A stretch of DNA of 64,000 nucleotides, taken from assembly GCA_015257485.1 (NCBI GenBank), contig JABZKC010000001.1, positions 5,078 through 69,077 on the forward strand, written 5' to 3'. The notes beneath the pieces were generated by a model that was given only the letters and a program-made list of their open reading frames with translations, was not told the origin of the DNA and did no database searches. A program made the position numbers and the translations under genes. This DNA is from Candidatus Nanosynbacter sp. GTDB lineage: Bacteria > Patescibacteriota > Saccharimonadia > Saccharimonadales > Saccharimonadaceae. Shown in pieces: positions 4,732 through 64,000 of the stretch. Numbering within the stretch: the stretch's first letter is position 1; each line of letters opens with the position of its first letter.

Positions 4732-4846
4732 TTTTGTCTCTTCTTTTATCTTGTTTAGCTATGTCTTATTTTCTTAATTTATCTTCTTTTTCCCTAAACT
4801 CTTTTCAGGCTAGCCTTTTTCTTTCCTATTTTCCTCTGATCTTCGT

Positions 4847-5638
4847 CTAATTATCTTGTCCGAGTATTCTTCCATATCTGTCGAGCAAAAGTTTCGTGCT
4901 CAGCATTCTTTTTTGTCGATACTGCATGGTCGGACTTTTAATCTTTTTGGTTTTCTCAACTTCTTTCAGGATTTCTTCTTCTAAGCCATCTCTGTCTCGC
5001 GCCTTCGGCAAATCTGTTCCAATCAATTTTCCATCTTCGAAAGTCCGCGTCCCCACCGTTACAATCTTGCCCAAATCACTTTTTGGTACCCCCTCATCAC
5101 TATATTCTTCCCCCCGTTCAACTTCCGCTCGTTCTGTCTCCAGATTTTTTTCTTGTTCAATCTGTGAATTTGCATTTTCAAAGCCTTGTATCTGCTCTGA
5201 ATGAATTTGCATTGAGTTTACCTGTTCAAACTGCCCCTGCCCCGACACACCATTCGTCTGCACCCACTCTGGCACACCACTCGGCTGCATTCCCTCTGAG
5301 ACGCCTCCTATTCGCATCTCCTCCGGAACACCGTTCATTTGCGCCTGCCCCGGCACACTATTCATCTGCGCCTGCATCGCCATCTGGCCCATCGCCATCT
5401 GTCCTCTGTCAAAACCGTTCGCCCCAGGCATTCCCTGAGCTTCAAACATTTGGTTCAGTCTCGCCACAGCTTCATCTTGCGTCAGCCCAGTTGGTACCTG
5501 TTCCGCCCCAAAATCACCCGAAAGCATCTGCCCCATCCCATCCGGTACCTGTTCCACTGAAGAAGAATTTAAGCCAGAAAAATCCTGTCGTTCTCGATCA
5601 TTTACTCCAGAAACCTGCCCAATATTTTTCTGATCCAT
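4847..5638 (-). CDS. Hypothetical Q/M/G-rich low-complexity protein (263 aa)
   Basis: Co-directional with its neighbours and has an acidic, ordinary composition. The antisense ORF 5083..5706 is P/S/H-rich and looks like an artefact. No recognisable domain. Confidence 0.45.
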   Translation of the reverse strand: MDQKNIGQVSGVNDRERQDFSGLNSSSVEQVPDGMGQMLSGDFGAEQVPTGLTQDEAVARLNQMFEAQGMPGANGFDRGQMAMGQMAMQAQMNSVPGQAQMNGVPEEMRIGGVSEGMQPSGVPEWVQTNGVSGQGQFEQVNSMQIHSEQIQGFENANSQIEQEKNLETERAEVERGEEYSDEGVPKSDLGKIVTVGTRTFEDGKLIGTDLPKARDRDGLEEEILKEVEKTKKIKSPTMQYRQKRMLSTKLLLDRYGRILGQDN

Positions 5639-5673
5639 GCCCCTATTTTAGCATAAACACTATGAAAAAAATA

Positions 5674-6048
5674 CTATTTCACCATCTTGGTGAACACAAA
5701 AAATAACAAACCAACAAAAAATGCCGGTAAGAAAATCAAAACCAGCAAATTCGTCACACTTGAAGCCACCAAAATCAACAACATAATCGGGTACATCGCA
5801 ATAATTCCCGCCTTAAAATAGTCCGTCTGTGTAGTTCTGTTTTTTAGAAAAACTACCTTCAAAAACAGGTTCATCACCCAGGTAATAATTCCAAAAACCA
5901 GAACATAAAGCAGCACAAAAGCCAGCATAATCCCTAGCGGGCCGACCATCATTGGTGTAGTAGTGAAGAGCATAACTACCAAAATAACCAAAGAAATTAA
6001 GCTTGAAATTCCGATCAATAGATTAACCATAAGACTATTATAAAGCAA
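5674..6048 (-). CDS. Hypothetical small integral membrane protein (124 aa, about 4 TM)
   Basis: Four hydrophobic segments and no recognisable motif. Confidence 0.45.
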   Translation of the reverse strand: MLYNSLMVNLLIGISSLISLVILVVMLFTTTPMMVGPLGIMLAFVLLYVLVFGIITWVMNLFLKVVFLKNRTTQTDYFKAGIIAMYPIMLLILVASSVTNLLVLIFLPAFFVGLLFFVFTKMVK

Positions 6049-7231
6049 TTTCCTATTCCCTCCCAGAAATATTTCCTAATGCTTCGATTTTCCATAAATT
6101 TATCTAATGTACGATGGAAAATACCATAGTCAAGCGGGTGGTTATCTGGCAAAAACATAACTATAAACCACAACCATCACCGCTTGAAATTGACCGCTCC
6201 ACTTTTAGTGGGGCAAAAGATCAGCCTCAGCTGATACGCCAGAAAATCTGGCTAACGTAGTCTTCGTCACTACATTGATCTTTCTCCTAATTGTTAATGT
6301 GTTGTTTATTTGTATTTTTGTCTTTCGACATTCTTATAGTATCACGGGTGTATATTTTATGCAAGCCTTTTTTGCTTAGATTTTAAGTATAAAATACAAC
6401 AATAATAATCACCTATCTGTTAGATCCCAAATATCTAAAACATTCACTATTGTACAAAATACTACAAAAAAGCCTAAAAATTCTATGTTGTAATTAATAA
6501 CATACCAAAATACAACATAAATCCGATTATTATTCACAAAAATTTCCTTCTAAAATCAAAAAGTAGAAGCTTTATCTTTAATCCTAAAATCTTTTGATTT
6601 TCAAAAAAATTAGACGCTATACTTCATATTGTTTAGAATAAAAAATCCCCACATTTCCCTTTTCCAAATATCGATCAAAAATATATTAGTAAGCATTAAT
6701 TAAGATTTTCAAATACCAATCGAAAAACTAATCCCATTTCATCACAAAAAAACTATAGTGGATAATTTCCGTCTAAAAACCCACCACAAAACTTTATTTA
6801 TAAAAAACGCCTAAATTAGGCAAAATAAAAAAAGAAATCGGTCAAACTGCGAGGAATACCGATTTCTTTTGTAGAGTGTGGAGTTTTTTGGCTATATTGT
6901 TTGTTTTTGGCTTGTGAACAATTTTATTATTCAAAAGCTACCTCTATAATACCGCTTCAAAACGCTAATGTCAACATATTTTTGAATAATTTTTTTACAA
7001 TTTTGCCCTATTTTTTAGTTTTCCACATCTACCCCTGTTAGCTCTGTATACTATTTTTGAACAATTTTAGTTTTACTTGAACACATTTTTTATTATTTTG
7101 AGCTATTTTAAGTCATCCACCCCTGTTGGACTTAATTTTACATTTTTTATTTTCAATCAAAATCCTTTTTCAGTTATTTTTTTATTTAAAAACATAAAAA
7201 ATAGCCTCGAAAAAGGCCATTAAAAATCGAT

Positions 7232-7581: not shown

Positions 7582-7834
7582 CAACTAATCCAATTATATC
7601 ATATAAAGATCGATTACACTCTATTATTCCCCCAATCTTGCCCTAGTTAGCCACCCCTCGCTCATTCTGCGAAAAAATACTAAGCATAAGCAAGTTATCA
7701 AAAGCATAAGCAAGTTATGATTTAACTTATTTATTTATCTCCTACCTCTTAAATCCCTACTCAAAATTTATTTTTCTCATCACCAAAATCATCATTTTCT
7801 TGGCATTTTTAACAAAACGATTCATTATAAAAAT

Positions 7835-11391: not shown

Positions 11392-12267
11392 TTAAATCTT
11401 TTCAATCGTGTATTCGTCTAAAACCGTATTTAATTCCGCATCCGCTACCTGATTTTGCTCTCGCCTCACGTGCGTAAATGCCACCGCGTCAAATCGCTGA
11501 ATTAATTTCAAAATTTCCTCATACACCGGCAAAATATCACTATTTTTCACTGTATAAATTCCGTTCATTTGATTTACCATCATCAAATTATCCGACACGA
11601 ATTTCACAGTTTTAAATCCATATTCTAATGCTTTATCAATCCCCACCTTCAAGCCATAATATTCTGCCAATCTCGAGGTAGCATAGCCAATAAATTCCCC
11701 ACCTCGCGTTATTTCTTTGCCATTTTCATCAATAATTACGTAACCAACCGCCGATGGCCCCGGATTTCCCCTCGATCCCCCATCAGTATAAATCGTCGCC
11801 CCCAGCGCCGCTGCCCTCGCGTCAATTCGATTCATTTTACTAATCTTCTTATGACCAAATTCCACGCTAACCACCGAGGCAGTATCATCCGCTAAGCGAA
11901 AATCCGAATTAACATCCGCCGAAAAACTTACATATTTATAAGCTGAATATTTCTCATTCAATTCTAGCTTTAAATCACCACTTTCCGCCAAAGTTATATC
12001 ATATATGATATATAAATTATAAATATTCGACCCATCACTTTGATTTGTAAAAGTAATTACATCACGAATTTTAATCGTCTCAATCTTTTGATTCAAAGTC
12101 TCAAAAATCATTCGCCCCATCGCCTCTTCCGGCTGTTCACCAAAATTTATCTTCCCCGCCGGCAAACTCCACATCACCGCATCGGAGTCGTCATGTAATA
12201 CTTTTTTCAATAACAAAAAGCTGTCATCCTTTTTAATAATTCCGACTACTCTAACTTTTTGCTTCAT
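11392..12267 (-). CDS. Nudix hydrolase-like N-terminal domain fused to an RNase H (RNase HI-like) C-terminal domain
   Basis: N-terminal VVGIIKKDDSFLLLKK...LPAGKINFGEQPEEAMGRMIFETL (Nudix-box-like GX5EX7R..E). C-terminal AALGATIYTDGGSRGNPGPSAVGYVI...FVSDNLMMVNQMNG...REQNQVADAEL (RNase H TDGS/NPGP and DxxA signature). Confidence 0.65.
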   Translation of the reverse strand: MKQKVRVVGIIKKDDSFLLLKKVLHDDSDAVMWSLPAGKINFGEQPEEAMGRMIFETLNQKIETIKIRDVITFTNQSDGSNIYNLYIIYDITLAESGDLKLELNEKYSAYKYVSFSADVNSDFRLADDTASVVSVEFGHKKISKMNRIDARAAALGATIYTDGGSRGNPGPSAVGYVIIDENGKEITRGGEFIGYATSRLAEYYGLKVGIDKALEYGFKTVKFVSDNLMMVNQMNGIYTVKNSDILPVYEEILKLIQRFDAVAFTHVRREQNQVADAELNTVLDEYTIEKI

Positions 12268-19537: not shown

Positions 19538-19972
19538 TTAACCCTCACCTAGTAATCTAATGAAAACCAAAAAGCCCAGCACTAAAATACCTAGTGAAAT
19601 ACAAATAAACATTTTTGCCACCGCTGCACCTTTTTTCTCAAAAATTCGCAGTGCTAATAGATTATGTAATACCCCCAAAGTTAAAGCCAAGATTGGAAAA
19701 ATCAGCATCGCCTGCCAAGATCCGTCATGGTAACCACCCGAATTTGCCATCGAAGACCATTCTCCACCCTGATAACGTCCGATATCTCCATAGCTAATTT
19801 TCACAATTGAGGCATTTGGTTGCAAATTCAATGCCGAAAAAATCAAAAAAGCCAAAGACAAAATCAAAAGCAAAACCTGAAAAACTACCAGGCTACGCTC
19901 CTTTTGATATGCTTCCTTAAAAGTCGCAATTAATTCTTTCATTTCTCTTATTATACCATTTTTATTTATCAA
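19538..19972 (-). CDS. Hypothetical small membrane protein (144 aa)
   Basis: Three or four hydrophobic helices. Overlaps the upstream gene by 11 nt. Confidence 0.45.
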   Translation of the reverse strand: MINKNGIIREMKELIATFKEAYQKERSLVVFQVLLLILSLAFLIFSALNLQPNASIVKISYGDIGRYQGGEWSSMANSGGYHDGSWQAMLIFPILALTLGVLHNLLALRIFEKKGAAVAKMFICISLGILVLGFLVFIRLLGEG

Positions 19973-20948
19973 GCAATTTACAAATCAAATTCAGCATCAA
20001 TTCCTTCTCTTCCGGTTGACTTTCTGCAATCAAAAGCACCAAAGCCGTCAAAGCCCGATCAGAGAGCTTCGTCTCCCCCTGTTCATTCAATTGAAAGAAA
20101 TTCACCGAAAGATAGACTACAAAAAGTAACGCACTAATCTGTTGATTTCCCTCTAGAAACGGTTTCTCATGTACGATAAAATATAGTAATTTCGCCGCTC
20201 GCCTAGCCACCGAATCGCTTCGTTCGAACAAATTTTGTATTCGGGCCGAAATTAGCGTTTCGCCCCTGTTATTTCCCGCCAGCACCCCGAAATTTTCACT
20301 CTCATTCAATCTTTCGCGTAGGTCTGAAATATAATTTTCAATCTCTACTTCACTCAAATCTCTTCTCGCCCGGGCCTCTACCGAAAAAATAATTTTATTG
20401 TTCAGATACTCTGAAATCGTTGCAAAACTATCCGCATATTTCGTTACCACCTCGAGCACGCCATTTGCCTCATTTGCGCTCAGGCTAGTTTCCGTCAGCA
20501 TTCTACGCACAATTCCCAGCGTTTCCTCTAGGTTCTGCAATTTTTCGCTTTGCTCTGGCAGTTTCTTCACCAAATCATAATTAACCGCCACCCCCTCCGT
20601 CATATAACGCTTAATAATTGAGGAGGCCCAGATACGAAATTTTGTCGCTTTTTTCGAATTTACTCGATAACCTACCGAGATAATCACATCCAAATTATAC
20701 TTTTTAATCTTACGTGCAATCCGGCGACCCCCCTCGAGACGCTCTTCCACCTCTTCCTTCACGCATTTTTCCGCTTCCAGCTCCTCATCAGCAAAAATAT
20801 TACGTAAATGTCTGGAAATTACCGTACGATCCACCTCAAAAAGCTCCGCAATCTTCCCCTGTTCCGCCCAAATCGTCTGATTCATTTCATCTACATCGAA
20901 AAAGACTTCCCCCTCTGCACCCTGATAAATTTCTAGCTTCGTCATCAA
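19962..20948 (-). CDS. RhuM-family protein with a C-terminal degenerate Fic/DOC-like domain
   Basis: N-terminal IYQGAEGEVFFDVDEMNQTIWAEQGKIAELFEVDRTVISRHLRNIF...YNLDVIISVGYRVNSKKATKFRIWAS (RhuM-like). C-terminal HEKPFLEGNQQIS resembles a degenerate Fic motif HPFx(D/E)GNGR. Confidence 0.55.
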   Translation of the reverse strand: MMTKLEIYQGAEGEVFFDVDEMNQTIWAEQGKIAELFEVDRTVISRHLRNIFADEELEAEKCVKEEVEERLEGGRRIARKIKKYNLDVIISVGYRVNSKKATKFRIWASSIIKRYMTEGVAVNYDLVKKLPEQSEKLQNLEETLGIVRRMLTETSLSANEANGVLEVVTKYADSFATISEYLNNKIIFSVEARARRDLSEVEIENYISDLRERLNESENFGVLAGNNRGETLISARIQNLFERSDSVARRAAKLLYFIVHEKPFLEGNQQISALLFVVYLSVNFFQLNEQGETKLSDRALTALVLLIAESQPEEKELMLNLICKLLDK

Positions 20949-24753: not shown

Positions 24754-26757
24754 CTATGGCTTACGCGTAAAGTACCCTTGTACTCCCGGGCGGTCCACTC
24801 TAAGCCAACTTAAATCTGCTGCACCTGGAGCCGCCAAAAATGAGCCATTACCGCCACGGAGCTTTTTACGATTTACAAACATTGCTGAAAAATTTATAAC
24901 TTTAGCAGTATCGAAATCATTATTTACATAAATTGTTTCTAACTTATCATTAAGCTTATCTTCATCTTGAAGGCTAAACATATTCTCCATATTCGTTACC
25001 TGGGAGGTATCAAAGTTGGAGAGATCAAGTGAGGTAAGACCAGACATATCAGAAAACATAGCTTCCATATTTGTTACCTTAGAGGTATCGAAGTTAGAGA
25101 GATTAAGGGAAGTGAGGCTAGACGTATTATGAAACATATAGTTCATATCCGTCACCTTTGAAGTATCGAAATTGGAGAGATCAAGGGAGGCGAGACTAGA
25201 CGTATCACGAAACATAAAGTGCATATCTGTCACTTTCGAGGTATCGAAGTGGGAGAGATTAAGGGAGGTGAGACTAGGCATGTCATAAAACATACCACTC
25301 ATATCCGTCACCTGTGAAGTATTGAAGCTAGAAAGATTAAGAGCAGTGAGGTTGCGCATGCCATAAAACATGAAACTCATCTTCGTTGTCTTCGAGGTAT
25401 CAAAGTTGGAGAGATCAAGTGAAGTAAGGTTAGGTATACCATAAAACATAAAGCCCATATTCGTCACCTCCGAAGTATTGAAGCTAGAAAGATTAAGGGA
25501 GGTAAGATTAGTCATGCTAGAAAACATATTACCCATATTCGTTACCTTCGAGGTATCAAAGTTGGAAAGGTCAAGGGCAGTGACATTAGACATACCATAA
25601 AACATTAAACCCATATTTGTTACCTTCGAGGTGTCAAAGTTGGAGAGATCAAGAGTGGTGAGATTAGACATACCATAAAACATATTGTGCATATCCGTTA
25701 CCTGTGAAGTATTGAAACTAGAAAGATTAAGGGCAGAGAGGTCACGCATACCATGAAACATTAAACTCATATCCGTTACCTTAGAGGTATCGAAGTGGGA
25801 GACATTGAGCGTGGTGAGATTAGACATACCATAAAACATACCGCCCATATTCGTTACCTCGGAGGTATCGAAGTTAGAGAGATCTATCTCTAAGATGTTT
25901 TTGATTTTTTGTTCATCAGATTTTGAAAAGAACATCTCATTGCTCTTCTTATTTAAATAAACTTTTCCCGGTTCAGTGTAATAATAAGCTGTCTTATCAG
26001 TCGGGTCTAACCAAAGTTTAATTTCGCATTCAGACTCATCATCATCAATATTCACCGCATTCATAGAAGCAGCTGGCGCAACAGGGCTCTTCTTAAAGTG
26101 CTCTATTTTATTTGTAGCGGTTTCCAAGGCTTTTAGTTTTGCATTAAAATCTGGGCCCTCTGTCATGATAGCTTTTGGCGTATATGGATTTGAAACCACC
26201 GAGATTATGAGCTTGTTTTCGTAATTACCAGGCTTAAGGCTGCTATTTAATTTCATACCAAGCTTAATGGTGTGGTTTTCTTCATCGGTAGATTTTTCGG
26301 TAGTATGAATAAGATTAGCTGGTGTAGAAAGTGCTGGGATAGGATTAAAATCAGTATTTGTATTGAAGCTATAGCCCCAGGTATTAGCAGGAAGATTGGA
26401 GAGAGAAGATACTGAAGAGATGGAGCTGATTTTTGTAGTAATGGCAGGGTTAGTATTTAATAGAGCAGTTTCATCAGTCTTAGCGCTAAGAGTAGCGGTA
26501 TAGCCAGTCTTATTAGTAGTTTTTACCTTGAGATTAATTGCATGTTCAGCAGTCTCGGAGCTAGATTCGATGGCTTCAGTACCATCAATAACTGCAGTGT
26601 TTTCATTGACGGAAGCTGAGAGCGTAGCTTTATAATATTCCGCAAATGAATTCTGACTAAACGCAAAATTTAACGTGAGTGATATTAAAACTATAAGAAA
26701 GCCAAAAATAGTCTTATCTAAAATAATATTTAAAATATTAAACTTTTCTCTCTTCAT
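24754..26757 (-). CDS. Secreted BspA-family (DUF285-type) leucine-rich-repeat surface protein
   Basis: N-terminal signal/anchor helix. At least 12 tandem 23-aa repeats of the form LSNFDTSKVTNMxxMFxxMSNLTSLD (the FDTS-V-MxxMF motif of DUF285/BspA LRR). Confidence 0.8.
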   Translation of the reverse strand: MKREKFNILNIILDKTIFGFLIVLISLTLNFAFSQNSFAEYYKATLSASVNENTAVIDGTEAIESSSETAEHAINLKVKTTNKTGYTATLSAKTDETALLNTNPAITTKISSISSVSSLSNLPANTWGYSFNTNTDFNPIPALSTPANLIHTTEKSTDEENHTIKLGMKLNSSLKPGNYENKLIISVVSNPYTPKAIMTEGPDFNAKLKALETATNKIEHFKKSPVAPAASMNAVNIDDDESECEIKLWLDPTDKTAYYYTEPGKVYLNKKSNEMFFSKSDEQKIKNILEIDLSNFDTSEVTNMGGMFYGMSNLTTLNVSHFDTSKVTDMSLMFHGMRDLSALNLSSFNTSQVTDMHNMFYGMSNLTTLDLSNFDTSKVTNMGLMFYGMSNVTALDLSNFDTSKVTNMGNMFSSMTNLTSLNLSSFNTSEVTNMGFMFYGIPNLTSLDLSNFDTSKTTKMSFMFYGMRNLTALNLSSFNTSQVTDMSGMFYDMPSLTSLNLSHFDTSKVTDMHFMFRDTSSLASLDLSNFDTSKVTDMNYMFHNTSSLTSLNLSNFDTSKVTNMEAMFSDMSGLTSLDLSNFDTSQVTNMENMFSLQDEDKLNDKLETIYVNNDFDTAKVINFSAMFVNRKKLRGGNGSFLAAPGAADLSWLRVDRPGVQGYFTRKP
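24957..25887. repeat. Tandem 69-bp coding repeats inside the BspA-like gene
   Basis: The DNA periodicity matches the 23-aa protein repeat; copies are imperfect. Confidence 0.7.
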
Positions 26758-41115: not shown

Positions 41116-42135
41116 TTAGCCTCTTGGTGGTTCGCCTTCCGGCTCGTTTAATAATTTCTTTGACTTAATTTCGTAGCGCTTACCGTTAATTGGCGAAACA
41201 TAATAATCTTCGTTCAAAAGATTCACAAACATCGTCAAATCCTTATCATCCATCATGATAATCGCACCATCATCATCAGTCATAAGTTCGAGTTTCATCT
41301 CGTCTGCATAGTCCACCAATTGTTCTTGCGACATTTGCTCTTCGATGTTCATGTCTTGTAACTTCTTCACTAACGGTTTTTTGTCCATCAAAAGCGCATT
41401 CAAGGTCAAACCTTCCGCGAAAGAAAGTTTGTATTTTTCTTCAATTTCTTTCGCCTTCGCTTCCGCTAACATCTGTGATTTAAAATCGTACTGGAAGAGA
41501 TTTTCAAACTTCGTCTGGTTAAAAATCACTACCGATCCATCGACAAAGGCCACCTGATTATCATCTGGCATCTTCAAAGCCACTTCCGCGGAAAATGGTT
41601 CAAAACTTTCCCCATTCAATTCCCAAGAAGTCTTCGCGTTCAATGCAGAAGCGGCAGAAATTCCCTTCGCGATGTAAAAAACTTTCGTCCCATCATCACC
41701 ACCTGGATAAGAAAACTTCGCAATAATTCCCTTCATCTTCTTGAACTGATGCTCATTATCCGTGAAATAATCGATATCCTTGTATTCTTTTTCAATCAAA
41801 TTTAATAGACTTTCTGCGCGAATCACTTTCGAAAGATCCGTACGATAAATTACCTTATCTTCGCCGTCTGATTTTTCATACTCACGGCATTCCAAACCTT
41901 TTTCAGCGCCCGAAATCACATAAGCGATTGCTTCCCCCATAAACATTTGCTTCACCGAATTAGTTAATTTTTCAGAATAGCGAATCTTAAACGGCGTGTA
42001 GTTTTTGTTAAACAAAAATAGTTCACACGACACATTATTTTTTACCTCATCAAGTTCATTCGCCCACAAAAATACATCAAAATCGTTCAATTTTCGAATT
42101 TCAGAGTTCGTAATTTCAGTCTTTTCGGAATCCAT
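41116..42135 (-). CDS. Hypothetical protein (339 aa), acidic, no recognised domain
   Basis: Long ORF co-directional with neighbours; no motif recognised by eye. Confidence 0.5.
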   Translation of the reverse strand: MDSEKTEITNSEIRKLNDFDVFLWANELDEVKNNVSCELFLFNKNYTPFKIRYSEKLTNSVKQMFMGEAIAYVISGAEKGLECREYEKSDGEDKVIYRTDLSKVIRAESLLNLIEKEYKDIDYFTDNEHQFKKMKGIIAKFSYPGGDDGTKVFYIAKGISAASALNAKTSWELNGESFEPFSAEVALKMPDDNQVAFVDGSVVIFNQTKFENLFQYDFKSQMLAEAKAKEIEEKYKLSFAEGLTLNALLMDKKPLVKKLQDMNIEEQMSQEQLVDYADEMKLELMTDDDGAIIMMDDKDLTMFVNLLNEDYYVSPINGKRYEIKSKKLLNEPEGEPPRG

Positions 42136-61155: not shown

Positions 61156-62760
61156 TTATTCTAAACTTTTCACAAACTCCATAAATAGTGGGTGCACACG
61201 TAAAGGTCTCGACTTGAACTCTGGATGCGCTTGAGTCGCCACAAAGAATTTCTTCCCCGGAGCCTCGATGAATTCCACCAATTTTCCGTCTGGTGATGTA
61301 CCCGAAACCACCACACCACCTTTCTCGATCTCTTTGAGGAATTTTTGATTTACTTCATAACGATGACGATGACGTTCTACAATATTGGTTTTTCCATAAA
61401 TCTTAGCTGTTTTACTTCCCTTAACTAATTTCGCCGGAAAATCCCCGAGACGCATACTACCACCCGTCGATTCCTTCCCCTCCTGGCCATCCATCAGATA
61501 AATCACGTTTTCTTTAGTTTCTTTATCAAATTCTTCCGAATTCGCTTGCATTAGTCCCGCTCTTCTCGCGCTCGCAATGCAAGCCACCTGCATCCCGAGA
61601 CATAGTCCAAGATAAGGCACATCTTTCTCCAATGCATAAGTCGCAGCCCTAATCTTCCCCTCCACCCCACGATTACCAAAACCACCCGGCACCACTAGGC
61701 CATCGACTTCCGACAACATTTTTTCATCAACTTTTTCCGCATTGATCCACCTAAGATCCAAATTAACATTATTCCAAGCTGCCGCCGCCTTCAAAGCTTC
61801 CGTCACACAAATATAGGTATCTTCGTTCCCGACATACTTCGCCACCAACCCCACCTTCACGGTTCGCGCATTTTTCTGTGCTCGCTTCTTGGAAAATTCT
61901 TCCCAATCGGACATATCTGGCTCTTTGTCATCTCCCACAAAATCATTGAGAATTTCCAATACCCCGGATTTCAAAACATTAAACGGCACGTCATAAACCG
62001 AATCAATATCTGGCAAATTCAATACTGCCTCATCCGCAATTCCCGAAAACCTCGCAATTTTTTCACAAATTTCGCGTGGTGCAGGTTTTTCTGTGCGACA
62101 CACTACCACATCTGGAATAATTCCAAATCCACGTAAATCTTTTAACGCATTTTGCGCCGGTTTACTCTTTAATTCTTTCGAGGTATTAATCCATGGCACA
62201 TAAACCACATTTACATAAAGACAATTTCGGCGTCCCACCTTATTGCCGAACAGCCTAATCGCTTCAATGAATGACAAACCCTCATAATCACCCACTGTAC
62301 CACCGATTTCCACGATATGAATATCCGAATTTTTCGAAGCATTCATAATTTTCTCTTGCACTAAATCCGTAAAATGCGGCACTAACTGTACGGTTTTACC
62401 ATGAAAACCTCCCGCACGTTCTTTTTCAATTAATTCCTTAAAAATCGAGCCCGAAAGCGTAATTGAATAGCGGTTCGTCTCAAAATCCAAAAAACGTTCA
62501 TAGTGACCCAGATCCAAATCGGTTTCCACGCCATCATGTGTCACATAACATTCACCGTGTTCCACCGGATTCAAAAGTCCTGCATCCACATTCAGATACG
62601 GGTCGCACTTCTGCATTGTCACCTTGAATCCCTTCGCCTTCAAAATGGAGCCAATCGAAGCCGCTGTAATTCCCTTTCCCACCCCCGAAAGCACTCCGCC
62701 GGTTACGAAGATATACTTACATTTATTCTTCTCTTTTTGTTTTACGTCTTTATTTTTCAT
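61156..62760 (-). CDS. pyrG: CTP synthase
   Basis: KYIFVTGGVLSGVGKGITAASIG... and a C-terminal glutamine amidotransferase domain with GLCLGMQ and HPEF. Confidence 0.95.
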   Translation of the reverse strand: MKNKDVKQKEKNKCKYIFVTGGVLSGVGKGITAASIGSILKAKGFKVTMQKCDPYLNVDAGLLNPVEHGECYVTHDGVETDLDLGHYERFLDFETNRYSITLSGSIFKELIEKERAGGFHGKTVQLVPHFTDLVQEKIMNASKNSDIHIVEIGGTVGDYEGLSFIEAIRLFGNKVGRRNCLYVNVVYVPWINTSKELKSKPAQNALKDLRGFGIIPDVVVCRTEKPAPREICEKIARFSGIADEAVLNLPDIDSVYDVPFNVLKSGVLEILNDFVGDDKEPDMSDWEEFSKKRAQKNARTVKVGLVAKYVGNEDTYICVTEALKAAAAWNNVNLDLRWINAEKVDEKMLSEVDGLVVPGGFGNRGVEGKIRAATYALEKDVPYLGLCLGMQVACIASARRAGLMQANSEEFDKETKENVIYLMDGQEGKESTGGSMRLGDFPAKLVKGSKTAKIYGKTNIVERHRHRYEVNQKFLKEIEKGGVVVSGTSPDGKLVEFIEAPGKKFFVATQAHPEFKSRPLRVHPLFMEFVKSLE

Positions 62761-62897: not shown

Positions 62898-62987
62898 GGA
62901 AGTGTGTCCGAGTGGTTTAAGGAGCACGCCTGGAACGCGTGTATGCGGGGAACCGTATCGGAGGTTCGAATCCTCTCGCTTCCGCCA
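62898..62987 (+). tRNA. tRNA-Ser (anticodon GGA), class II with a long variable arm
   Basis: GGAAGTG...CGCTTCC acceptor, anticodon stem-loop CACGC-CTGGAAC-GCGTG, long variable arm, T-arm GGAGGTTCGAATCCTCTC, and encoded CCA. Confidence 0.85.
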
Positions 62988-63286
62988 TTAAAATAAAATA
63001 GACCCAGAGGGTCTTATTTTATTTTAACTTGTGAGAGGATGAGAACCGTAGGTTAGACCGGACGACGAAGCGAGACAAAAGAAAATTTATTTTCATTTTG
63101 CGAGCAAGGAGGAACGGAAGGGTTTTGCTTTCAAAAATCTACCGGACGACGAAGCGAGTGAAAGACAAAAAGCTTGCTTTTTTCTTTTTGAGCGAGGAGG
63201 AACGGAAAGATTTCGCGAAGCGAAATTTTAATCCTCTCGCTTCCGCCATTAAAATAAAATAGACCCAGAGGGTCTTATTTTATTTT
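62969..63286 (+). repeat. Perfect 57-bp direct repeats (62969-63025 and 63230-63286), each comprising the last 19 nt of tRNA-Ser plus its terminator hairpin, flanking a 204-bp insert
   Basis: Both copies read AATCCTCTCGCTTCCGCCATTAAAATAAAATAGACCCAGAGGGTCTTATTTTATTTT. The insert contains two internal units of about 75 bp that share ACCGGACGACGAAGCGAG...GAGGAGGAACGGAA. Confidence 0.8.
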
Positions 63287-63294
63287 TCGTAATT

Positions 63295-63708
63295 CTAGCG
63301 ATTATTTTTATTATGCAAGAAATACACCAGCGCCGAAATAAAAGCTCCGAGTGTTACCATGCTGCCCACTACCGTAGTCACTATCATTGTTGCAGTAATA
63401 CTTTGTTCCGTCATGTGATTCATGTGATCATAAATAAACAGTGCCGACTCATTATTCGTCACATCTGAAGCATCCTCCTTTTCCGAGTTCTCGCAAAGTC
63501 GGGCATTTTTTAAGACTACTTTTTCCATCTTCTCACTTTTATCAAAACAAATCGCTGGCACGTTATCCACTTCGACTCCTGCACGCATTGCAGTCCTAAT
63601 TTCACTTACACCCCAAAATGTTAAAAACCCCGATACGAATCCTAAAATAAATAATAGCACCGTATTGCAAACCACAAAACGTTTCTTATTATTTTCTCTT
63701 CCCGCCAT
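63295..63708 (-). CDS. Hypothetical membrane protein (137 aa)
   Basis: N-terminal and C-terminal TM helices with a Cys-containing middle segment. Confidence 0.45.
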   Translation of the reverse strand: MAGRENNKKRFVVCNTVLLFILGFVSGFLTFWGVSEIRTAMRAGVEVDNVPAICFDKSEKMEKVVLKNARLCENSEKEDASDVTNNESALFIYDHMNHMTEQSITATMIVTTVVGSMVTLGAFISALVYFLHNKNNR

Positions 63709-63787
63709 TTATTTTCCTTACGGTTACTTTTCTTCATTATACTAAATTCCCCACAAAAAAAGATTGCGTTTTCGCAATCTTTTAAAT

Positions 63788-64000
63788 TTACTCTACCTTA
63801 CTCTCCGTTTTTATTTCTTTCGGTACCACAATCTGGCTACGTAGATACTTCTGAAAATTCGTATAATTATATAACGATCCTTCCGAATAAGTTGACGCAC
63901 CCGCTGGAATCACCACACTAGATAAACCAATTCTCCCCGTACCAAATTGATCAACCGTCGAAATCGGTTGAATTCCCCCTTCTAGTTTTGTACCAAAATC
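63788..64000 (-). CDS. Partial CDS (C-terminal end; the gene continues beyond the window), unknown function
   Basis: Open frame to the window edge, reverse translation ...GGIQPISTVDQFGTGRIGLSSVVIPAGASTYSEGSLYNY...VPKEIKTESKVE then a stop. Confidence 0.35.
   Translation of the reverse strand, partial: DFGTKLEGGIQPISTVDQFGTGRIGLSSVVIPAGASTYSEGSLYNYTNFQKYLRSQIVVPKEIKTESKVE

Follow-up and report, generated by a model that had tools for sequence, protein, structure and literature searches.

A candidate RtT-like RNA cassette in Saccharibacteria that ends in a copy of the neighbouring tRNA 3′ end

RtT elements have been known since 1978–1991, and their original descriptions are reportedly those of Egan and Landy in 1978, Rossi et al. 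in 1981, and Bosl and Kersten in 1991. They are found near several tRNA genes, vary between strains and have no known function (PMC4986893, PMC7542023, PMC8092127). In Escherichia coli, RtT is described as an RNA that arises from tRNA operon transcripts by processing (Bosl and Kersten, 1991, as cited in PMC4986893 and PMC7542023). In the tyrT-tyrV region of E. coli K-12, four RtT units were detected with Rfam (133–137 bits), one of them between two tRNA-Tyr genes and three in tandem with a period of 178 nt. AATCCTTCCCCCACCACCA, which corresponds to the 3′-terminal 19 nt of tRNA-Tyr, is found at the end of each of these units. RtT was found in 4738 of 5426 complete E. coli genomes at 1–10 places per genome, and none was found in 688 genomes. 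In the same set of genomes, 18 places are located on plasmids.

In the window, the stretch of 64,000 nt from Candidatus Nanosynbacter sp. that was analyzed here as a whole, an insert of 204 nt (63026–63229) is located directly 3′ of a tRNA-Ser(GGA) gene and is flanked by a direct repeat of 57 nt (62969–63025 and 63230–63286). In the repeat search, the two copies were 100% identical without any mismatch. In each copy, the 3′-terminal 19 nt of the tRNA are followed by a hairpin with a T-run that was scored as terminator-like. An exact repeat of 57 nt within 2 kb cannot be due to chance, and the duplication of the tRNA 3′ end together with its hairpin, which the initial annotation had placed at these positions, was confirmed. 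The insert had been described there as two copies of a unit of about 75 bp. Two copies are indeed present, but their unit length is 84 nt, they lie 84–88 nt apart and they are only 70–91% alike. The blocks ACCGGACGACGAAGCGAG and GCRAGGAGGAACGGAA occur in both units, the two hairpins differ between them, and for the 18-mer ACCGGACGACGAAGCGAG the two occurrences compare with 0.06 expected. Since the same arrangement is found in many independent assemblies, it is not an assembly artefact. The locus is flanked on one side by pyrG (61156–62760, − strand) and argS and on the other side by the gene of a 137-aa membrane protein (63295–63708, − strand); a LytR_cpsA_psr protein is also encoded within 63295–64000. 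The single features of the locus are listed in Table 1.

Table 1. Features of the tRNA-Ser(GGA) gene and the cassette behind it, in positions of the window.
Feature	Position	Strand	Evidence
tRNA-Ser(GGA), intact, CCA encoded	62898–62987	+	ARAGORN; Rfam tRNA 52.4 bits
Direct repeat, copy 1: tRNA nt 58–76 (19 nt, 62969–62987), first terminator hairpin and T-run	62969–63025	+	repeat search; terminator scoring
P1 5′ strand: leader GTGAGAGGAT, pairing with ATCCTCTCGC in the tRNA-derived strand	63031–63040	+	RNAalifold; R1 alignment
P2 hairpin GAACC-GTA-GGTTA, with the motif GGATGAGAA, common with E. coli RtT, just before it	63043–63055	+	R1 alignment; Rfam RtT alignment; single-sequence folds
Core domain, copy 1: junction CCGGACGACGAAGCGAG, P3 (63075–63100), junction CGAGCAAGGAGGAACGGA, P4 (63119–63140); without a closing strand after it	63058–63140	+	
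Core domain, copy 2: junction CCGGACGACGAAGCGAG, P3 (63159–63191), junction GCGAGGAGGAACGGA, P4 (63207–63229)	63142–63229	+	
Second copy of tRNA nt 58–76: A58, P1 3′ strand ATCCTCTCGC (63231–63240), single-stranded tail TTCCGCCA (63241–63248)	63230–63248	+	
Terminator 2, hairpin and T-run; same terminator at the L002 empty site	63249–63286	+	

One genome per species was scanned with the pattern CGACGAAGCGAGN{20,50}GGAGGAACGG, which resulted in 45 loci. Saccharibacteria from mouth, gut and rumen account for 37 of these (about 37 species), and the other eight are GC-rich chance matches. With the exception of L109, the cassette core in the Saccharibacteria loci is located just 3′ of a tRNA gene and on the strand of the tRNA. 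Eight types of tRNA were identified as neighbours, namely Ser-GGA, which is the most frequent, Ser-CGA, Asp-GTC, Tyr-GTA, Asn-GTT, Val-TAC, Gln-CTG and Leu-CAG, and the distance between the tRNA end and the core motif amounts to 68–83 nt in most loci. The segment following the last hairpin reproduces the sequence of the tRNA present at the locus, and its first nucleotide is in all cases A58, at a distance of 19 nt from the tRNA 3′ end. The full 19 nt are retained behind Ser-GGA, Ser-CGA (two different sequences), Val and, in L112, Tyr, and only 8–13 nt behind Asp, Gln, Asn and, in L085, Tyr. The upstream leader contains the reverse complement of this tRNA-derived segment, and an intrinsic terminator follows every tRNA-derived tail of the Saccharibacteria cassettes.

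Some loci deviate from this arrangement. L109 contains a full cassette (6836–6971, 105 bits) and no tRNA gene in its 8 kb, and compared with L083, its closing helix contains compensating changes. In L085, the intact cassette is directly followed by a degenerate second one (7584–7695, 15.9 bits), which appears to be decaying. Between tRNA and cassette, L078 and L107 have an additional stretch of about 70 nt with an inverted partial copy of a junction motif (cttgctcgctcgtcg), and the gap from tRNA to core is 145–146 nt there, compared with 68–83 nt elsewhere. The genome JAZUAP01 carries two cassettes, behind tRNA-Asp and tRNA-Asn (L106 and L107), which share the P3 type and have different closing helices.

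The cassette fold is a junction of four helices: the closing helix P1, formed by the leader and the tRNA-derived strand, the short hairpin P2, the hairpin P3 at the tip of a long arm of purine-rich, invariant junction sequence, and the hairpin P4. In a MAFFT alignment of 39 single-core units, 32 columns are invariant, and all of them lie within the two junctions. The unguided RNAalifold analysis predicted P1, P3 and P4 as well as a CCG/CGG pairing. A covariance model with five helices, termed R1, was built from the Saccharibacteria units and gave 50 strong matches in the Saccharibacteria loci (82–152 bits). In the R1 alignment, which is fitted to the model and favours the structure, 91.2% of the paired cells are standard pairs and double changes are found at 39 of 41 pairs. 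None of 500 shuffles reached any of the five measures for this alignment, and when the partners were slid by 1–3 columns, pairing fell to 38–54%. RNAalifold and single-sequence folds, both of them unfitted, agree with the structure; the single-sequence folds of units behind Ser, Tyr and Val tRNAs show this architecture at z-scores between −3.6 and −7.0.

Across the loci, P1 shows compensatory changes at all of its 10 pairs, and these track the neighbouring tRNA. Pairing is also held in L109 and in L096, where the 3′ strand differs from the tRNA (GTAGGTC/GACCTAC, compared with GTAGGAC/GTCCTAC elsewhere). Because the distal tRNA copy forms the 3′ strand of P1 with its nucleotides 59–68 (tRNA numbering), it is part of the element. 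A heavily deleted element, one of two possibilities named in the initial annotation, does not fit these results, since a structured core of about 130 nt is conserved with strong covariation behind eight types of tRNA. In total, 75 G-U pairs and 44 A-C mismatches were counted, a modest excess that mildly favours the tRNA-sense strand.

In the window, R1 matches only once, at 63126–63230 with 89 bits. In the minimum-energy fold of this copy, GAAGCGAG pairs with CTCGCTTC and P1 is not formed. The invariant junction sequence GAAGCGAG (63067–63074 and 63151–63158) is complementary to CTCGCTTC in the tRNA-Ser-derived strand (63236–63243), and this complementarity exists behind tRNA-Ser only.

Further candidate structures were considered and rejected. 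For a full tRNA-like minihelix, consisting of an acceptor stem (GAAGCG/CGCTTC) and a T-arm with an inserted hairpin, the motifs proved to be invariant behind all tRNA types, and it is the leader that co-varies instead. The supposed core positions of a hammerhead-like reading of GGAUGAGAAC vary among the loci. Rfam gave no meaningful match to known ribozymes, tmRNA, YrlA or other tRNA-like families, and no match of the cassette to the tRNA-like families was significant. With the tRNA-like domains of tmRNA, YrlA and viral tRNA-like structures, the cassette shares a 3′ end made up of a tRNA T-stem and acceptor strand with NCCA; it differs from them in having neither a T-loop nor a full acceptor stem, and only three of seven acceptor nucleotides are paired.

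The Rfam RtT search of the window copy returned no match up to an E-value of 10. Five single-domain relatives match positions 1–130, the full RF00391 model, at the exact position of the unit with 29.9, 26.6, 23.6, 22.3 and 21.1 bits, scores that are below the gathering score of 45 bits. A T-run, the closing helix onto the tRNA-derived strand, GGAUGAGAAC...GGUUCGA, AGCGAG and a terminal NCCA are common features in the RF00391 alignment, and the Rfam consensus structure line of RtT likewise contains the closing helix of leader and tRNA-derived strand. In the reverse direction, R1 detects all four E. coli RtT units at the places given by Rfam (24.5, 13.9, 13.1 and 11.5 bits).

The likeness extends to the arrangement of the units. 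In both groups, the unit directly follows a tRNA gene in the same orientation, its 3′ end is made up of the 19 nt from A58 to CCA of this tRNA, and it is closed by pairing of its leader with the tRNA-derived strand. The GGAUGAGAAC...GGUUCGA hairpin and the AGCGAG motif are shared, tandem arrays of similar unit length occur (176 nt in Saccharibacteria, 178 nt in E. coli), and the copy number varies among strains or relatives, some of which have no copy at all. In contrast to RtT of the Gammaproteobacteria, the cassettes in Saccharibacteria have a P2 loop of 3 nt instead of the T-loop-like UUCGACYAA, AT-rich P3 and P4 arms of unrelated sequence, and the junctions CCGGACGACGAAGCGAG and GAGCGAGGAGGAACGGA. 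They also differ from RtT by the terminator after every tail, the lack of a Tpr reading frame, the eight types of neighbouring tRNA and, for the window copy, the doubled core domain. Judged from sequence and predicted structure, the window element is probably a divergent RtT-like element, a classification that is held with much more confidence than any statement on its cellular role. With the RtT-like clade in Saccharibacteria, an RNA family that is known but unexplained gains a divergent relative, which belongs to a new and distant phylum of tiny genomes and shows some new traits. No relevant literature was found on mobile elements or non-coding RNAs at tRNA genes of Saccharibacteria.

The variation at the window locus was analyzed with 16 metagenome contigs encoding an identical PyrG or an identical membrane protein. 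An empty site, for which the initial annotation had proposed to search, was identified in L002, a contig with 95.8% identity to the window along 10.3 kb, from which precisely 63026–63229 and one copy of the repeat are missing, so that the tRNA is followed by a single terminator. The insertion-deletion polymorphism is thus bounded exactly by the repeats. The genes at 63295–64000 had been regarded as possible cargo; as the membrane protein and LytR_cpsA_psr genes are present at the empty site of L002 too, they are chromosomal. A larger occupied form with an integrase had also been named there as something to look for in relatives, and none was found in the loci of 37 species.

In total, the relatives have 0, 1, 2 or 3 cassettes. 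Two complete tandem units with a period of 176 nt, each with one core and its own tRNA-derived tail, are present in L006, the same period was found in L073, and L097 contains three units. In L009, L013 and L016, the arrangement is as in the window, with a different hairpin as the tRNA-adjacent terminator and a repeat of only about 20 nt. The two-domain form also occurs in L001, L004, L009, L014 and L074 and is therefore inherited and tolerated. The nearest named genomes are Candidatus Saccharibacteria (Nanosynbacter-like) with 88–94% identity, and about 20 species-level genomes that are 88–94% identical to the window carry a cassette behind tRNA-Ser(GGA) beside pyrG. According to the initial annotation, the same duplication with a conserved insert in all relatives would point away from a mobile scar and toward a structural or regulatory element. 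This pattern was largely observed. The view of the repeats as an att scar or the border of a mobile remnant holds insofar as they bound a discrete unit that comes and goes; the unit itself is neither a scar nor the decayed form of a larger element.

Two further observations concern the compared contigs. Many independent metagenome contigs, namely L003, L005, L007, L008, L010–L012 and L015, end in or beside the cassette, and its repeats seem to break metagenome assemblies at this locus. In L009, four short ORFs are called at 4987–5898 where L010–L012 have an intact tsaD (~4840–5892); tsaD of L009 may be frameshifted or replaced.

Taken as a package, an RtT-like RNA cassette with read-through transcription, tRNA-style processing and copy-number change by recombination is the explanation that we consider reasonably probable. 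The cassette would constitute one small structured RNA gene directly behind the tRNA gene and on its strand, in which the copied tRNA tail would be a working part, providing a strand of P1, the NCCA tail, and the tRNA's own context for 3′ processing and termination. As a terminator sits between tRNA and cassette and no promoter-like site was found before the cassette on the + strand, expression would need read-through. Transcription would proceed from the tRNA promoter and end at the second terminator, and the RNA would be set free by the nucleases of tRNA 3′-end maturation, in the way that has been reported for the rtT RNA of E. coli. The released RNA might then act as a mimic of tRNA 3′ ends, a role proposed with much less confidence.

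Most likely, the copy number changes by recombination between the repeats. Unequal homologous recombination between the repeated tail and terminator would add or remove whole cassettes, resulting in the observed range of 0 to 3. The two domains of the window cassette carry different types of P3 and P4, for which a deletion between two unlike tandem units is the simplest origin. In this event, the first unit would have lost its closing strand, tail and terminator, and the second its leader and P2. Unequal recombination accounts for the cassette numbers at one site; it does not account for cassettes behind eight tRNAs with a matching P1.

A miniature non-autonomous integrative element, i.e., a circle of about 176 bp with the copy of the tRNA 3′ end as attachment site, is a doubtful alternative. 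A tyrosine recombinase encoded elsewhere would insert it at the T-loop region of the tRNA, by which the tRNA is regenerated, the old 3′ end is displaced and arrays are built up. Integrative elements at tRNA 3′ ends, among them the cis-mobilizable elements (CIMEs) as derivatives without an integrase, have direct repeats of the tRNA 3′ end, empty sites and tandem accretion in common with the cassette. In agreement with an insertion, the left edge of the tRNA repeats is fixed at A58 in every tRNA type, the empty site in the 96%-identical relative L002 is exact, and the tRNA-adjacent terminator of the L009 type differs from the native one of the empty site as if it were insert-borne. Arrays composed of unlike cassettes, the eight tRNA neighbours including two cassettes at two tRNAs in one genome, and the patchy distribution of the family over Gammaproteobacteria and Saccharibacteria point in the same direction, and the decay of the distal tRNA tail at some loci is consistent with a displaced, non-functional 3′ end. 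The cassette differs from these elements in its unit of only about 176–261 bp without genes, in having no integrase nearby, and in a distal repeat that is part of a conserved fold. Within 10 kb to the left and right, the Pfam lists contain no integrase family, in line with the initial annotation, and no recombinase or integrase was detected with Pfam among ten otherwise unassigned ORFs of the window. By clustering of the flanking ORFs, no protein family was found to travel with the cassette between tRNA types. The search of phage sequences did not reveal a carrier either. A scan of viral contigs with GGACGACGAAGCGAG gave 56 matches, all by chance, and a looser gapped pattern gave at least 120, again only by chance; none of either set had the second motif or scored with R1. 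With blastn against 50,697 phage records, nothing was found for the Saccharibacteria cassette and only a misfiled Salmonella chromosome for E. coli RtT. Compensatory changes in four helices are unexpected for a double-stranded attachment site, and the occupation of about 20 related species argues for long residence. Furthermore, the copy number of RtT in E. coli varies likewise, and no integrase is known for it there.

A related possibility is a folded single-stranded DNA site like that of integron attC or of the CTX phage attachment site, in which P1 would rebuild the tRNA target and a host recombinase would exchange one strand; it is considered quite improbable. In attC and the CTX phage attP, too, an inverted repeat rebuilds the target, and arrays are found beside an intact target. 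Correspondingly, P1 is a hairpin copy of its target that changes with it, an intact target is left beside the tRNA in arrays, and G-U pairs are only modestly in excess of A-C mismatches. In attC sites, conservation concerns the structure and not the sequence, unlike in the cassette with its strongly conserved unpaired junctions and their 32 invariant positions, and no linked recombinase, either of the IntI or of the Xer type, was found. The raised coverage of exonuclease-resistant DNA at E. coli tyrT/rttR under stress (preprint 10.1101/2024.07.17.603846) would agree with a folded DNA, and the reported finding that the product of E. coli rtT is an RNA (Bosl and Kersten, 1991, as cited in PMC4986893) speaks against it.

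Functionless pseudogene debris, in which the insert would consist of decayed duplicates of the tRNA-Ser 3′ half from local tandem duplication, is very improbable. GAACCGTA and GGTTCGA/GGTTAGA of the insert are indeed also part of tRNA-Ser(GGA), in its variable arm and T-arm. The reading is contradicted by the conservation of the core behind Asp, Tyr, Asn, Val, Gln and Leu tRNAs and the Tyr tRNA of E. coli, and also by helices with compensatory change instead of decay and by the 32 positions that are invariant across species. Least credible is a small basic Tpr-like protein encoded from the ATG of GGATGAGAA, as might be suggested by the E. coli tpr annotated within the RtT unit and by a basic ORF of 54 aa in the window (63098–63262), because the window frame from this ATG stops after five codons (ATGAGAACCGTAGGTTAG), an A/C polymorphism there makes or removes a stop codon among relatives, and the sequences of P3 and P4 change completely while their pairing is kept.

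Beyond the RtT-like RNA cassette favoured here, a wider and rather speculative idea concerns the spread between tRNA genes. RtT-like cassettes of Gammaproteobacteria and Saccharibacteria might be protein-less selfish elements that spread by copying the last 19 nt of the target (A58–A76) and then re-tuning the leader so that P1 matches the new tRNA, with the conserved fold being recognized by the propagation machinery. This machinery would be an enzyme of the host that handles tRNA, a recombinase that works on folded DNA, or a step of reverse transcription. The stretch A58–A76 is the one matched by retroviral primer-binding sites.

Duplication of a tRNA 3′ end need not be the footprint of an integrase. 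In the Saccharibacteria clade, deep covariation fixes the RtT-like fold, the last 19 nt follow a simple rule by copying the neighbouring tRNA while the leader co-varies, and natural alleles with 0 to 3 cassettes exist. With fold, rule and alleles at hand, the role of the RNA and its movement between tRNA genes become testable questions.

As to the remaining window, the GC skew is strongly negative throughout and almost all long ORFs are located on the − strand; tRNA-Ser and cassette lie on the + strand and oppose this main direction. Among the − strand ORFs, there is one of 339 aa (41116–42135) with a Pfam match of 37 bits to KwaB of the Kiwa anti-phage defence, one for a RhuM-family protein with a weak Fic match (19962–20948), a fusion of Nudix and RNase H-like (RVT_3) domains (11392–12267), and one for a DUF285/leucine-rich-repeat protein of 667 aa (24754–26757).
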